The translations under genes and the position numbers were made by a program. The notes beneath the pieces were generated by a model. That model had not been told where the DNA came from. It did no database searches and saw only the letters and a list, made by a program, of their open reading frames with translations. From Eledone cirrhosa (Eukaryota): a DNA stretch of 64,000 nucleotides. Location of the stretch: assembly GCA_964016885.1 (NCBI GenBank), contig OZ024756.1:15314001-15378000 (forward strand), read 5' to 3'. Position 1 is the first letter of the stretch, and every line of letters begins with the position of its first letter. Positions 1,397 to 61,836 of this stretch are shown here, piece after piece.

Positions 1397-1582
1397 TAGG
1401 AAAAGGTATGACCCGACGGCAGAACTCAAGCCGTTTCGACGGCTATTTCTGGACTAGCCGTCGAAACGGCTTGAGCTCTGCCGTCGGGGTCATACCTTTT
1501 CCTATTACCCACTCTACTACCCTAAGTATTGAGTACTCTGGTGGGTTATGGTCCATCTGGTTCCTTACCACAATTCCTTCGT
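1397..1582 (+). mobile_element. Fold-back pLTR, family H8 (half-hammerhead palindrome)
   Basis: Palindrome 1397-1505 containing GAAAC-GGC..GCC-GUC, then tail; related copies at 55333-55489 (+) and about 30096-30145 (-); related tail at 1216-1378. Confidence 0.7.
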
Positions 1583-4500
1583 TATATAGATATATATATA
1601 TATATATATATAGCTTCCACACAATTCACCTTGAAGATTCATAAGCCGTACTTATAAATATATATTGTATTTCTTATAGATATATATAAAGGTATTTCTC
1701 CCGCCCCCGTTGTTTTATAATAATAATGAAATTATTGTGTAAAGTGCTCAGGTACACTACATAACAGTGTAAGATATAAACAAATATATTCCATATTCTT
1801 ATTGTCTGTTTCCCTTCCGTCTCACTATGACTTGTGCAGTCCAAATCTGATTCAGTGATCTAAGTTTACATTTTGCGTCAGATACTGCATGCGGTGTTTA
1901 CAAGGTGAAGGATGCCTTTAAAACCCCCATTACATTACAAATGCTTCTCAGACTCAGAGAATATCAAACATTGGGTCATGCATGGCACCTGCCGCAAAGG
2001 AATAGGGAAATAAACCCTGCAACGGAAAAGAACACTTGTCATGTGAAAGTATTTTGTAAAGTCTGGCACAACAGATGCTGTGTTAATTCTCAGAAACGAA
2101 GAACCCAGCCCCACCCTCAAACAAAGGAGGAAGAGAAACACCCGTCGTTACTCAAACTATATCAATAACTGTATGTGATGGTTAATGAAAACAACATTTC
2201 CTCAACCAAGAATGGCCAAACTTGATAGTCCATTACACACAAACACGGCTCCCTACAATGCCACACACACATATATATATATATATAATCTTGTAACCGA
2301 GAAGCTATAGCAGTGATTCGGGGATTCAGGAATTTTGTGTTTTAAGGACACTCCCCAAACAAGGTTGGAAGGGTACCCTTAAGCAGCCTTCAAACGAAAC
2401 TCCTGGCTCTCAAGTCAGTGATATAGCTTCGTAGATATAATAAATAAAATATGTAGTGAGCTTTATTTATGCCGTTTGCACAACCAAGCCTCGCTCTCTC
2501 TGTCTGTGTGTGTATATATATATATACATTATATATGCATGTATGTGTATATATATAAACTACGTATACTCACTGTCCACCTGTCCGCCTGTCTCTCGTA
2601 CTCCGTCCTTCGTTGACGAAGGCATAATGATGCCTTCTTAAGTTATTCTCCTTTCACTTGAACAGTTTCTTTCTGTTTTTTCTCCTTATTTTTTTGCCAG
2701 CGAAGACTTGTCCAGGTCTCCCCTCCGTATTTGTTGCCGTTGCTGCGATATTTCTAGCTTAGTTGCCAACGTGAAATTCTCTTAGTACCTTGACTTGGAG
2801 GTGGACCATACACAAACAACAACAATACTACTACTGTTGCTGCTATTACTACTATCACTATTAATAGCCACCAACGACACCACCACTCTACCACTACTAC
2901 TATTATAACCAATAGACAAACATCAATACCACCACTATTATTACTACTACTACTAACAGTCATATGACAAGTGGAAATGACTGACTCCCCCACATCTCGA
3001 CAGGGGGCGTTGCTGGTCGACTGTGTCAGGTGCCCTTAAGCTGCACATCTCTCAATAAAACTGCAGCAACAAATCCGAGCATTGCTCCCCAATATATTTG
3101 CCAACTTCGACTTTTCTTCGTGAGTATACTCACTTTCTGCTGGGGGTTTTTTTTTATTTTTTTTTAGCTTAAATAACGGGAATTTGAAATCTGGGTGTAT
3201 TAAAAAGAAAGTGTATAAATTCTTGCTATTCTGCAAATTCACACAGGAATTTTAGTGTTTTTAATCATGTATTTTCTTTACGAATATGTTGAAGAAACCA
3301 CAAACTTGAGATAAAATATATGAGTTTCAGCACAAAGAGTGGAGGTATGGACCAGATGTTTGATAGTAACTATTTTGATGTGTCACCGTTCAATGTTTAA
3401 ATCCACCTTGCTGCGGTCTTTTTGTTTTCTTTCTTTCAGTCCCAGTAATATCCTAGGTACAATCCATCTATTACACCTTTCCTTATATTTACAAAAACGT
3501 GCATTACAACTGAATTGGCTGTCAGAAGTGAAAGTAGAAGAATGTTACGTCAATCTGACGTCATTCGTCAAACTTATTTCCGTATCACCACGCGTTTATT
3601 TACGTTAGCGTAGTAATCGATGAAAATATTTATTTCGCTCTATATATTTATATATTTCAATAATGTTTCAAAAGCATGGATACAGTAAAGTGAGTACATT
3701 TGAAAATAAATCGATTACGCTAAACATACATTGGTTTTTCACTTTGGGATAATACACGTATTTGCAACTTGCTTACACGTTAATTACAATTGTAACAGCT
3801 AGTGTAGTTTTTAATGCACATGTTAAATAAGATTGTATATTATCGTTGTTGAATTTATTTTCTTAATCCTGTATGTTATTAAAAGGTTCCCGAATAGTAC
3901 AGTAAATTAAAGCATTTACGAACGGAACTATGCAATGAAAGTATTTTTAATAAGTGTATCTCATCGTAATTCATAAATGGCTGTGTAAACCCTTACACTT
4001 TAAAACAAAATTACAAACCAGTTATGTGGTCATTTAAGTTGCTAGAAATAGCAGGCAAATCTTATACCCTCTACCACATTAAAAAAAGAAAGAATGAAAA
4101 CGGGAGTAACTCGTTAATATTTAATGAAATATTCGAAGCGTTTCTGCTTCGGACGTGATAAAAAGGAAATTATATAGAGATTTTTAAATATTTCGAAAGC
4201 ACAAGCAATCGTCAAGGACTTTATATACTAATTCCTTTCTTTCTGTGTTCGTGGCAGCTGAGTATCAACCATCCATAAATAATTTTTACCCGCTAAGAAT
4301 CTCAATGGGGAAAACTTTTTTAAATTTCTGGCAGTATTACAAAACAAGGTTATCTTGTAGTTACCCGCGTTAAATTGTTTTGTTTTTTTAAGATAGTCGG
4401 TAGTGTCGGCCCCATGAACTTCATTTGTTTTCTAATTTGATAACTATGACTATGAAATAAAACACGTGGTGATACGGAAACAAATCGATTATGCTAAACG

Positions 4501-4646
4501 TAAATAAACAAATAAACGCGTGGTGATACGGAAATAAACGAAGGTTGACGACGTTACTTTCTTCTACTTTCACTTCTGACAGCCAATTCCGTTGTAGTGC
4601 CCTGTATTGTTCTCCAGTGTTGTTTTTCCATATCATCATATATATA

Positions 4647-5463
4647 CTAGCAGAGGAACCCAACGTTGCTCGGGTTTTAAATAGCAGTCATGTATAACAT
4701 TCATGTCAATACTTCAGTGCTGCTTGATAACTATACTTGTACAAAATCATCAGCTTTTTCCAAAACGGGGTTCCTGCCCCCAGGAGTCCCCTACTCAATA
4801 TGTGCCAATTCTGAGTGTTCAAATTCATCTGCAGAACATACGTAGCCCATGTCTCAAGTTTGGTGAAAATCGGTTGTGAACTCCAGAAGTTATGACTGCA
4901 GTGCTTCAGTTGACTCCAAGGAAGCGGTTAAAGGGGGTTATCTGCCCCCGGAAGAGGGGGGGGGGGGGGGGGGGGGGGCTATAATCAATATCTGGAAAAA
5001 TGAAAGTACTCATGACCATCCAGAGTACATAAGTAACCTATGTCTTAAATACAACGCTGCTCGTAGTTTTCTAACGCTCTTGCAGTAGCTTTACATTCAG
5101 CATCTTGCCATTGTCTAATTGCAGCCTCCATTGATAATTCATTTGCTTTTCTTCTTTTCCCTCTCTCAGCTTTCACCGTTTTTCAACCAATGGCAGATCT
5201 CTTCCTTGGAGGCATTATCTAAGATGAGTAAAATGTTAACCAACAATTATTTAAGTTTCTCGCATGTGACGCGATTGTTACGGTGATCCAGACAGCCTTC
5301 GTCCACCTAGGGGCTGCATTAGACAAAAACTTTATGAGTCCCCAACACTTCTGGGAACATAACGCAAGTTTGTTCCAAATTTGAAGAAAATCAGTTGCAA
5401 ACTGTAGAAGTTATGTGGGTATGGGTACGGACATACACACACATCCTCAGTTTTATATATAGA
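4647..5463 (-). mobile_element. Non-autonomous Helitron
   Basis: On the - strand: 5' TCTATATATAAAACTGAG ... hairpin CCCGAGCAACGTTGGG ... CTAG 3', between A and T; a second 5'-like end at about 6088. Confidence 0.65.
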
Positions 5464-6303
5464 TGCGTGTTTGTGTATGTATGTGTGTGTATGTGCGTGC
5501 GGATAATGTAACTTCTCAGGACACAGTACATCTTGTGTGAAAGAGAGAAAAAGACGTACTGTTGAGGAAAGGGGAGAGTTAAACTGTAAAGAATGAATAA
5601 ATAAAAGTTATCGAATGCTGCTATCCTTTTCTCCCCAATCCCCCTCACTCTTTCTTTCTTTCTCAACTCCTCTGTCTTTTTCCTCATACCCTCTCTCTCT
5701 CTCTCTCTCTCTCATACCCTCTCTCTCTTTTTCTACAGAATGGAGAACAATCAAGAATGCACATTGTCGTCTGCTTTGTTTGAAATTTCTTTATGTATAT
5801 TTCTAATAAGTTGTTGCCTCGTCTTGGAGGACTGAGTTGTGGTAGGATGGAGGGTTTAACATAGTAGTAGTAGTCTCTCCTCTTGCCCTCTCTCACTGAA
5901 ACGTCTTCTCTTTCCTCCTCCATAGTAAAGATGTCTCCGGGGTTCCATTATTGATTTTTATTGAAATCCAATTAGCCAGTCCTGTTTCTGAATATTAGCT
6001 TAACGTGTGTAAAGTTTCATCAGGATCGGATTACTGGTGTAGGCACCAACTGGTCATACACAGACAGAAATTGCCATTTATATAGTAGATTATATATATA
6101 TATATATATATCATCATCATTTTACGTCTGCTTTTCCCTACTTGCAAGGGTTGGACGGCTCCTATTCAGCACAGCATCTCTCCACAGGTCACGGTCCTTC
6201 GTCATCTCCTCGGTGAGTTTCAGCGATCTGAGGTCTGCTCTCACCACCCCCACCAATGTTTTTCGTGGTCTACCTCTACTGCGTCTTCCTTCTACATACA
6301 CAC

Positions 6304-60863: not shown

Positions 60864-60877
60864 ATATGTTACATATA

Positions 60878-61060
60878 TAATTGTTTCTATTTTAGGCACA
60901 AGGCCAGCAATTACCCAGTACATTACTGGTACTTTATTGTATCGACCCCGTAAGGATGAAAGGCAAAGTTAACCTCGGCGGGATTTGAACTCAGATCATA
61001 AAGGGACGTAACTCTATGCTTCAAAGCATGGTGTCCGACTCTCTACCGATACCAATCCAC
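60878..61060 (-). mobile_element. SINE family A
   Basis: Reverse copy. Confidence 0.85.
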
Positions 61061-61167
61061 TTTCCATTACCAATCCACTTATAATACATATACATGTATA
61101 TATATATACATGTATATATATATACATGTAATATATAAGATCAAAAGATGGTTAAAGGAGTTCCATG

Positions 61168-61237
61168 TATTTTATTATGCGCATTTCAAAACAAACATCA
61201 TCATGCAATAATATTTGTGTTTTCATCAGATAAAACA
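61168..61237 (-). ncRNA. Hammerhead ribozyme (H1b), solo arm within 61130-61265
   Basis: Near identical to 24491-24561. Confidence 0.7.
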
Positions 61238-61836
61238 GGAGAACATGATATGAAGGCTAAAAAACATACATGTATATATATGTGTATATATATGTACATG
61301 TGTGTATGTATATACACATAAATATATATATATTTATATATATTTATATATATTTATATATATATATATACATATACATATATATATATATATATATATA
61401 TATATATACATATATATATGTATATATATATATATATATATATATGTATATATATATATAATACATATGTTAGCCAGTGGTATTGTATAGCTGTACCTCT
61501 GCCTAACGGACGTGTTGTAATTGTTGTTTTATCATAACTTACAAAATTCTTCAAACGAAATCACTGAAATTACCAAAATTATCTACATCACTGAAGAATT
61601 GTGTATATACACTCTCTCTCTCTCTCTCTCTCTCTCTCTCTCTCTATATATATATATATATATGTATATATATATATATAGAGAGAGAGAGAGAGAGAGA
61701 GAGAGAGAGAGAGAGAGAGAAGAGAGAGAGAGAAGAGAGAGAGAGAGAGAGAGAGAGAGAGAGAGAGAGAGAGAGAGAGAGAGAGAGAGAGAAGAGAGAG
61801 AGAGAGAGAGAGAGAGAGAGAGAGAGTGTGTGTGTG

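Follow-up and report, generated by a model that had tools for sequence, protein, structure and literature searches.

The stretch of DNA considered here, called the window, comprises 64,000 nucleotides of Eledone cirrhosa (GenBank assembly GCA_964016885.1, contig OZ024756.1, positions 15,314,001 to 15,378,000; catalogued as G000:C17:15314001-15378000, in an assembly of 2.996 Gb). It is rich in hammerhead ribozyme motifs, which end Penelope-like elements (PLEs) of Hydra type as well as units that encode no protein, and these elements were probably inserted by nicking of both strands of (TA)n, with two cDNAs made on one RNA source. Elements of this kind are already known and have been seen once in octopus; what is added here is their scale and the signatures of their insertion. 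A prediction made earlier from the letters of the window (the original prediction) had proposed about 20 type I hammerheads from about 10 families, carried by a dense guild of Penelope-like mini-elements that target (TA)n.

Hammerhead motifs and the elements that carry them

A strict type I descriptor (CUGANGA, GAAA, UH, stem I of at least 4 bp, stem II of at least 2 bp) matches 15 times in the window, where 100 local dinucleotide shuffles average 0.04 matches (maximum 1); permitting a stem I of 3 bp raises the count to 16, against 0.19 in shuffles. Among the 19 positions originally listed, 14 pass strictly (10896, 11108, 11265, 20050, 20236, 20572, 20740, 24491, 24660, 43369, 43897, 51192, 53598, and 61168) and 52253 passes once the 3-bp stem I is accepted, or 15 of 19 in all. 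Position 30741 is a U3-A8 core variant, which has already been published for minimal hammerheads (PMC4209133). The cores at 57961 (U4C) and 58584 (C3G) are mutated, and at 18843 the core is present while a proper stem I partner is missing. Two motifs had not been listed: the one at 23350 is intact, while that at 12039 has lost its core. At the start of the predicted guild, 1397, lies a palindromic element that holds just the 3' half of a hammerhead. The figure of about 10 families is right. By core and stems the intact window motifs are confirmed as type I hammerheads, which would cleave themselves as dimers.

The same features recur outside the window. In 99 evenly spaced, unselected 10-kb stretches (990 kb) there are 83-99 motifs (1.1-2.1 in shuffled sequence) that fall into 26 clusters, and the excess over shuffled sequence seen in the window is repeated there (99 versus 2.1). 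The palindromic stem III and complementary stem I that had been predicted both hold when neither is required of the search: stem III is a perfect palindrome in 68 of 76 matches found with no stem III rule (0 of 7 in shuffled sequence), and stem I reaches at least 4 bp in 61 of 75 found with no stem I rule (1 of 71). The 26 clusters show 24 different stem III sequences, and the intact palindromes have predicted self-duplexes of -3 to -10 kcal/mol. A (TA)4 run follows each of the 21 window motifs within 210 nt, and for 18 of them within 150 nt, although some of these runs are the element's own short-end TATATATA. The association with TA is borne out in the sample, where 79% of motifs have TA within 150 nt as compared to 20% of positions drawn at random and 32% of those drawn at random from the same stretches. 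A scan with Rfam models gave no hammerhead family among the best 150 of 281 matches, where sub-threshold TA-hairpin microRNA models predominated. The U3-A8 core is used by several families (L016, L019, L115, L065, L078, and window 30741) and accounts for 7 of the 99 sample matches, two of these seven being probably chance.

Sampling extrapolates to 250,000-300,000 motifs per genome, but a direct count is used here instead. A pattern for the A/B group was counted 76,593 times genome-wide (control 0) where the sample had predicted 124,000, so that the extrapolation is 1.6-fold too high for this group and counts against the sampled scale. Two general patterns gave 127,466 and 124,295 matches versus 3,956 and 11,752 in reversed controls, an excess of about 236,000 motifs, or one per 12.7 kb; these patterns leave the stems unchecked (76 of 87 such matches in the sample have the full descriptor) and leave out the U3-A8 and long-stem families. 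The very large complement originally proposed is therefore upheld, while its density of one motif per 3 kb was over-extrapolated about fourfold genome-wide, since motifs are about threefold denser in the window (one per about 4 kb) than they are on average across the genome (one per 10-13 kb). Hydra-like coding DNA makes up 2.3% of the sample. TA clusters and motifs correlate across the stretches (rho 0.64), but targeting alone accounts for this, and it is no demonstration of the proposed co-evolution with TA microsatellites. Canonical hammerheads are present in high counts in Schistosoma, and "densest" is therefore not claimed here. The largest count found in the literature is 126,247 for the axolotl (PMC7229834), and minimal hammerhead motifs have been put at 2,000-9,000 per genome (PMC4209133). 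No report of hammerheads at about twice the axolotl figure in at least 26 clusters, and no cephalopod hammerhead census, was found in the literature search. In its available parts, a 2026 repeat annotation of O. vulgaris counts Penelope-like elements and leaves hammerheads unmentioned (PMC13282606). Individual families may already be annotated in repeat libraries.

The Penelope-like origin of the elements is supported by open reading frames (ORFs) for reverse transcriptase (RT) and endonuclease upstream of the hammerhead in five families. Long copies show this link for family C (L062-L067), A1 (L074), A2 (L207, L208, L210), B (L209, L211-L213), and cluster 3 (L206), and a single ORF joins the RT to an endonuclease called as GIY-YIG from its motifs in L062, L063, L074, and L210. 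Natural copies bear DKT, Y[RH]DD, CxCX5C, CxxC..E, and CxH. A C-terminal endonuclease with the CxCX5C linker occurs in all five families and in 110 of 120 homologues, DKT replaces DKG in L062, L210, and L073 (DK[TS] in 111 of 120 homologues), CxxC..E is found in all five families, and the terminal CxH is found in four and is unmatched in B. CCHH is absent by eye from the Hydra-type proteins of the five families. For the N-terminal RWK motif, family C (L063) has RRLRWR as a possible counterpart, and the motif was not located in the other families. A predicted protein model resembles RT folds including TERT (E 4e-7 to 1e-4), a search at the level of RTs that does not separate PLEs from other RTs. 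Pfam gave a weak RVT_1 match in 1 of 42, further Pfam searches of PLE ORFs and of the window ORFs gave nothing, and sequence searches of the PDB were without match. L062 also has a tandem arrangement (a partial pseudo-long terminal repeat, pLTR) at 2,495 nt. Judged by their motifs, the five traced families are the 3' ends of putative RT and GIY-YIG elements of the Hydra clade, an assignment based on diagnostic motifs in natural copies. The Naiad clade was rejected, since Naiad has an N-terminal endonuclease and no canonical hammerhead, while here the endonuclease is C-terminal and hammerheads are present. The notion that all of the elements are retrozymes was likewise rejected, because five families run into ORFs. 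As to the guild of dedicated mini-elements, most of its members are ends of autonomous Hydra-clade PLEs, truncated at 5' and placed head-to-head. Families that include ORF-less, retrozyme-like units account for only a minority, about 16 of the 99 sampled motifs (clusters 4, 5, 6, and 20).

Hammerheads and (TA)n insertion are listed for the Hydra clade, which includes the complete Hydra-1_Obim from Octopus bimaculoides (PMC8557442). The present elements resemble that clade in their C-terminal GIY-YIG, DKT, CxCX5C, CxxC/CxH, and unit of 2.5-3 kb, and also in a type I hammerhead with palindromic stem III near the 3' end, insertion at (TA)n, and an inverted 5'-truncated copy. They differ in that the clade table holds one cephalopod family and no Hydra copy number was found in the available text, as against at least 26 clusters and about 236,000 motifs here; the tails are 60-115 nt rather than the 30-40 nt described, and the published Obim hammerhead is, by eye, unlike any cluster here (PMC8557442). 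Like the minimal hammerheads of metazoan PLEs (Cervera and de la Pena 2014, PMC4209133), the motifs have a short stem I, a palindromic stem III, the U3-A8 variant, opposite-strand pairs 100-700 bp apart, and many families per genome, although the stem III palindromes are longer here (mostly 8 nt, range 6-10).

Anatomy of the insertions and a model for their origin

The hammerhead lies 40-200 nt from the 3' end of the element. For 47 of 89 motifs an inverted arm was found upstream, and for none of 86 was one found downstream. There are two fixed 3' ends per family, one short and one tailed (long), both at TA, and the tail corresponds to what comes after the repeat in a unit of full length; in the query sequences they fall at positions 52/132 for family A, 78/142 for C, and 139/254 for D. 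In L062 the extra tail runs on into the 5' region and ORF of the full unit, as the internal-initiation model predicts (PMC11167929). Paired arms nearly always combine the two ends: one is long and the other short in all 19 pairs from unselected stretches and in 50 of 59 pairs overall, and tail-selected pairs give 23 long-short and 2 long-long of 25 (p 2e-5 versus 0.5). In 23 of the 50 long-short pairs the short arm extends further 5' while the tail is on the long arm only, so that neither arm is a copy of the other. The arms of a pair have private variants in common, and the nearest relative of an arm is its own partner in 20 of 31 pairs, with divergence between arms of up to about 12%; among 34 pairs none was of mixed subfamily. 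That PLEs can have head-to-head arms, one of them ending in a tail, is already known (PMC3846280). A near-strict long-short rule, with counts and the argument that the arms are not nested, was not found in the literature, the available parts of PMC3846280 included.

These pairs, and the motifs themselves, could in principle be artefacts, either fold-back reads in the assembly or matches that arise by chance where DNA is rich in AT. Artefacts are indeed a risk with perfect palindromes and with long arrays of identical units, but with arms that differ by up to about 12%, asymmetric arms, end sites fixed across loci, and shuffled and reversed controls 10- to 300-fold lower, this explanation is hardly credible. 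A more serious alternative, though still an unlikely one, is that the inverted arm of the same elements arose by self-priming or fold-back of one cDNA, or from an antisense template; self-priming or fold-back has been proposed for the Penelope of rotifers (PMC3846280). It accounts for the shared private variants and the palindromic junctions, and it fits the 27 of 50 pairs in which the long arm reaches equally far or further. The other 23 long-short pairs, where each arm has unique sequence, are impossible for simple fold-back; an antisense template spanning both sites is unaffected by them.

The stem III palindrome has a further possible role, as a family-specific dimerisation signal that unites two RNA molecules, each giving one arm. 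The 24 palindromes in 26 clusters, with their predicted self-duplexes, would suit such a signal, as would the finding that 20 of 21 uninterrupted head-to-head pairs are of the same family. It is nevertheless quite improbable, as A1 and A2 have one palindrome in common yet are never mixed, and arms share private variants, even those that damage the palindrome (L102, L108). Dimerisation of unrelated RNAs is thus unsupported, and dimers from one source locus alone may occur.

Insertion through both strands, from one RNA source, is preferred here as the more likely reading. The anatomy described above is read directly from the genomic copies, and from it we infer the chemistry that follows. By analogy with the PLE protein of the anole, which cuts and extends both strands in vitro (PMC11167929), an RT-GIY-YIG dimer would cut the self-complementary (TA)n on both strands. 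Each nick would prime at one of two internal start sites by pairing with local TA, and both cDNAs would end early and then join head-to-head. The template would have to span the cleavage site, which calls for uncleaved or re-ligated RNA. The palindromic stem III would permit the predicted cleavage only as dimers, on tandem transcripts, and most genomic copies would be dead-on-arrival. Long hairpins with 83-87% of the bases paired are predicted for whole inverted elements, which makes it unlikely that most copies are active ribozymes. Lunse et al. reportedly described in 2017 PLE hammerheads that cleave as dimers, and may list octopus variants.

Several findings weigh against this model. The 59 pairs include 7 short-short and 2 long-long exceptions, although 2 of the 7 short-short pairs were counted as long-short in the tail-selected set. 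The arm that reaches further 5' varies by family (short:long is 16:6 in A, 7:6 in B, and 0:5 in C). In 9 of 31 pairs some other locus is nearer to an arm than its own partner is, with 2 ties, and the likeness of the arms could stem from later gene conversion. The 34 pairs free of mixed subfamilies come from a set restricted to arms at least 70% identical, a filter that cannot reveal mixed-family pairs, and 1 of 21 head-to-head pairs with no TA between them is of mixed family. Family E and most small clusters have no link to an ORF. The ORF-less families lack the tail motif described below, which might have pointed to their partner enzyme. At the level of the hammerheads, both sides are changed in 8 of 10 stem II pairs of family B (21 motifs), which speaks for a conserved structure, but 21 of 500 shuffles equalled the number of covarying pairs in a control that ignores relatedness.

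Some features of the ends stand beside this argument. The tail motif ACT[CA]..GAG[TA]RCT is present in 21 of 23 sufficiently long copies of clusters 0, 1, 2, and 7 and in 0 of 28 of all others, and in 22 of 3,000 random windows, and is a candidate enzyme-binding site. In the family A copies L082-L111, the 5' breakpoints of about 11 arms gather at a CATATG palindrome, 67-68 nt before the core is reached, possibly a transcript start, a boundary of the source copy, or an annealing site. A rule that the leading arm is short and the trailing arm long was dropped, as it fails across families. A separate scan for inverted arms between TA tracts gave 67 versus 20 of 747; its control was high and it is not relied on.

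The steps of the model have precedents. Cutting of both strands, a predicted dimer, two start sites that give the tail, and an uncleaved template have been described for the anole protein (PMC11167929). That element, the Poseidon PLE PAc, shares with the present ones its two internal start sites, optional tail, and AT-rich target, and it cuts and extends both strands and inserts without need of the hammerhead; it differs in belonging to another clade and in an ORF that starts inside the hammerhead, while that of family C starts about 300 nt downstream (PMC11167929). Both the way in which PLEs make inverted tailed insertions and the function of their hammerheads are open questions (PMC8557442, PMC11167929). 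Since about 10^5 junctions are available, with start sites that are fixed, a target that is simple and defined, and families still young (97-99% identity), models of priming become testable statistically and then in vitro. The copies also constitute a large natural library of hammerhead variants, may give rise to much intronic hairpin RNA, and in their short inverted form could be mislabelled by automated annotation as miniature inverted-repeat transposable elements, short interspersed elements (SINEs), or unknown repeats. In L1 twin priming, primers from both target strands lead to a 5' inversion joined by short microhomology. The two cDNAs of twin priming copy non-overlapping parts of the RNA, while the arms described here copy the same region and have fixed ends.

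Hammerhead units without reading frames

Family D is represented in the window by a retrozyme-like element on the plus strand (43368..44025), in which a 528-nt ORF-less unit lies between hammerheads at 43369-43449 and 43897-43977 and which terminates at the short site in (TA)n. It has 2,692 first-look candidates, the best 40 at 97-100% identity, with tandem arrays elsewhere. Copies lie on many chromosomes, have the same two end sites in TA, several with head-to-head arms, and are often only 1-2 units long with a variable start. Its predicted circular fold is -126.1 versus -89.5 +/- 5.5. Family F has a 441-nt ORF-less unit, known as a partial repeat with a single hammerhead (22945..23585, plus strand; hammerhead 23350-23399, 3' end at TA), with a circular-fold z of -7.1. 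The unit of cluster 6 is 311 nt, and units of 441 and 466-467 nt are also present. Across D, F, and clusters 4 and 6 the units are 311-530 nt, with GC of 0.34-0.38 and a longest ATG ORF of 30-75 aa, and five ORF-less units are predicted to fold as circles better than shuffled sequence does (z -3.3 to -11.6), while 12 controls range from -1.9 to +2.6. In L200 (G000:C1:1238500-1245500), 14 identical 311-nt hammerhead units, 5 minus and 9 plus, are flanked by TA tracts on both sides, have two different ends, and share one variant that differs from L026. Tandem ORF-less arrays with units of 311, 466-467, and 528-531 nt are seen in L200, L026, L203, L142, L201, and L202, some of them multimeric on both arms.

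D, F, and clusters 4 and 6 have, as far as sequence can define it, the features of non-LTR retrozymes. They resemble the metazoan ones in being low-GC, ORF-less tandem units, each bearing a single type I hammerhead and predicted to form a stable circle, although at 311-530 nt they partly exceed the 170-400 nt given for these (PMC7229834; bioRxiv 10.64898/2026.07.22.740005). Two fixed ends, a TA target, and head-to-head arms occur here and were not found for metazoan retrozymes in the available text of PMC7229834 and the 2026 preprint. Mobilisation of retrozymes by PLEs has been proposed from co-occurrence and sequence relationship (PMC7229834; bioRxiv 10.64898/2026.07.22.740005). A PLE-type insertion signature on putative retrozymes is more direct evidence of mobilisation than co-occurrence, and no ORF-less hammerhead units of 311-530 nt with this signature were found in the literature. 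Tentatively, circular retrozyme RNAs processed by their hammerheads may be copied round the circle by a Hydra PLE enzyme, on both (TA)n strands and from two fixed starts, and the genome would then hold tens of thousands of copies as a record of this. For the ORF-less units this would mean cleavage to monomers, closure into circles, and copying in trans; a linear multimeric transcript is also a possible template. If true, this is direct insertion-signature evidence of PLEs mobilising retrozymes, within the largest hammerhead complement found reported.

The tandem units could otherwise be leftover PLE terminal repeats that became local satellites by unequal crossover, with no circular RNA, which seems doubtful. 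Local unequal crossover has been offered as an explanation (bioRxiv 10.64898/2026.07.22.740005), and young satellite arrays would have identical units too. Such arrays do not fit the dispersal of family D over many chromosomes with the same two TA end sites, often as 1-2 units with variable start and head-to-head arms, nor L200, where both arms are multimeric and have one variant in common, nor the stable circles that the units are predicted to form.

Family E may consist of long non-autonomous PLEs. The window has a minus-strand copy (50993..51440, hammerhead 51192-51249) and a diverged plus-strand copy (53587..53850, hammerhead 53598-53655) with a damaged palindrome. Copies are young, at 98-99% identity, and the single full 2.9-kb unit examined has no ORF longer than 99 aa and no match to Hydra. 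In L184-L185 (G000:C3:316671399-316677494) the 2.9-kb unit runs from hammerhead to hammerhead and has internal duplications.

Further elements of the window

Several window hammerheads lie in head-to-head insertions. Family A1 has one in (TA)n at 10769..11215, with a tailed long arm on the minus strand (hammerhead 10896-10965, tail about 10769-10858) and a short arm on the plus strand (hammerhead 11108-11177), and another at 19922..20342 with a tailed left arm (hammerheads 20050-20119 minus, 20236-20305 plus). Family B has one at 20442..20844, its left arm tailed (20572-20636 minus, 20740-20804 plus), and A2 has one at 24453..24854, its right arm tailed (24491-24561 minus, 24660-24730 plus). 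A2 also has a single short arm on the minus strand (61138..61266, hammerhead 61168-61237) and a tailed palindrome truncated downstream of the hammerhead (53187..53334). The family C insertion (11232..12172) combines a short minus arm (11232-11452, hammerhead 11265-11304) with a long plus arm (11445-12172) that bears the core-deleted hammerhead at 12039-12075 and a tail at about 12109-12172. The long arm contains a C-terminal GIY-YIG endonuclease remnant of a Hydra-type PLE (11445..11880, plus strand, profile E 3e-37, one internal stop), which includes the ORF 11572-11877 and has 51,432 first-look candidates genome-wide. A search of sequencing runs with family C listed no RNA data set. A second Hydra-type endonuclease remnant lies on the minus strand beside a TA tract (57432..57650, profile E 8e-11).

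Of the remaining hammerheads, the U3-A8 motif (30741..30785, plus) has the palindrome ACCGGU, the one at 52253..52298 (minus) has a canonical 4-bp stem II with a 3-bp stem I, the U4C motif (57961..58038, plus) has intact relatives in cluster 3, which is tied to a Hydra-type ORF in L206, and the C3G motif (58584..58625, plus) is related to the family F region. The truncated minus-strand hammerhead without a stem I partner (18843..18950) is accompanied by tail-like sequence and belongs to the family of the palindromes at 31179-31340 and 52970-53086. At 1399..1590, a tailed head-to-head palindrome is truncated inside its hammerhead and has a relative at 55336-55486.

Other repeats lie among these. 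A TA-flanked element at 41993-42855 has inverted arms of 254 nt and no hammerhead match; compared by eye, it has sequence in common with the body of elements of cluster 2 (L197). A dispersed SINE-like repeat of about 190 bp, with more than 10 copies at 80-96% identity and no hammerhead match, occurs at 7674-7861, 18166-18357, 22017-22199, 23934-24126, 38070-38261, 52787-52975, and 60874-61060, along with shorter copies. Minisatellites, whose units measure 79/60, 121, and 51 bp, together with a pentamer array of 3.3 kb, occupy 45926-48849, 58726-59667, 16373-16741, and 26607-29887. Fragments resembling long interspersed elements are present at 19274-19874 and 60257-60860, at 6321-6685 and 8553-8911, at 50257-50850, and at 59835-60260, some as inverted pairs with 95% identity. 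A phosphoribosyltransferase-like exon on the plus strand (10189-10270; Pfam Pribosyltran E 2.7e-4, below the cutoff), which we take to be APRT-like, suggests that nearby elements may be intronic, and a decayed stretch at 9785-9838 resembles it.

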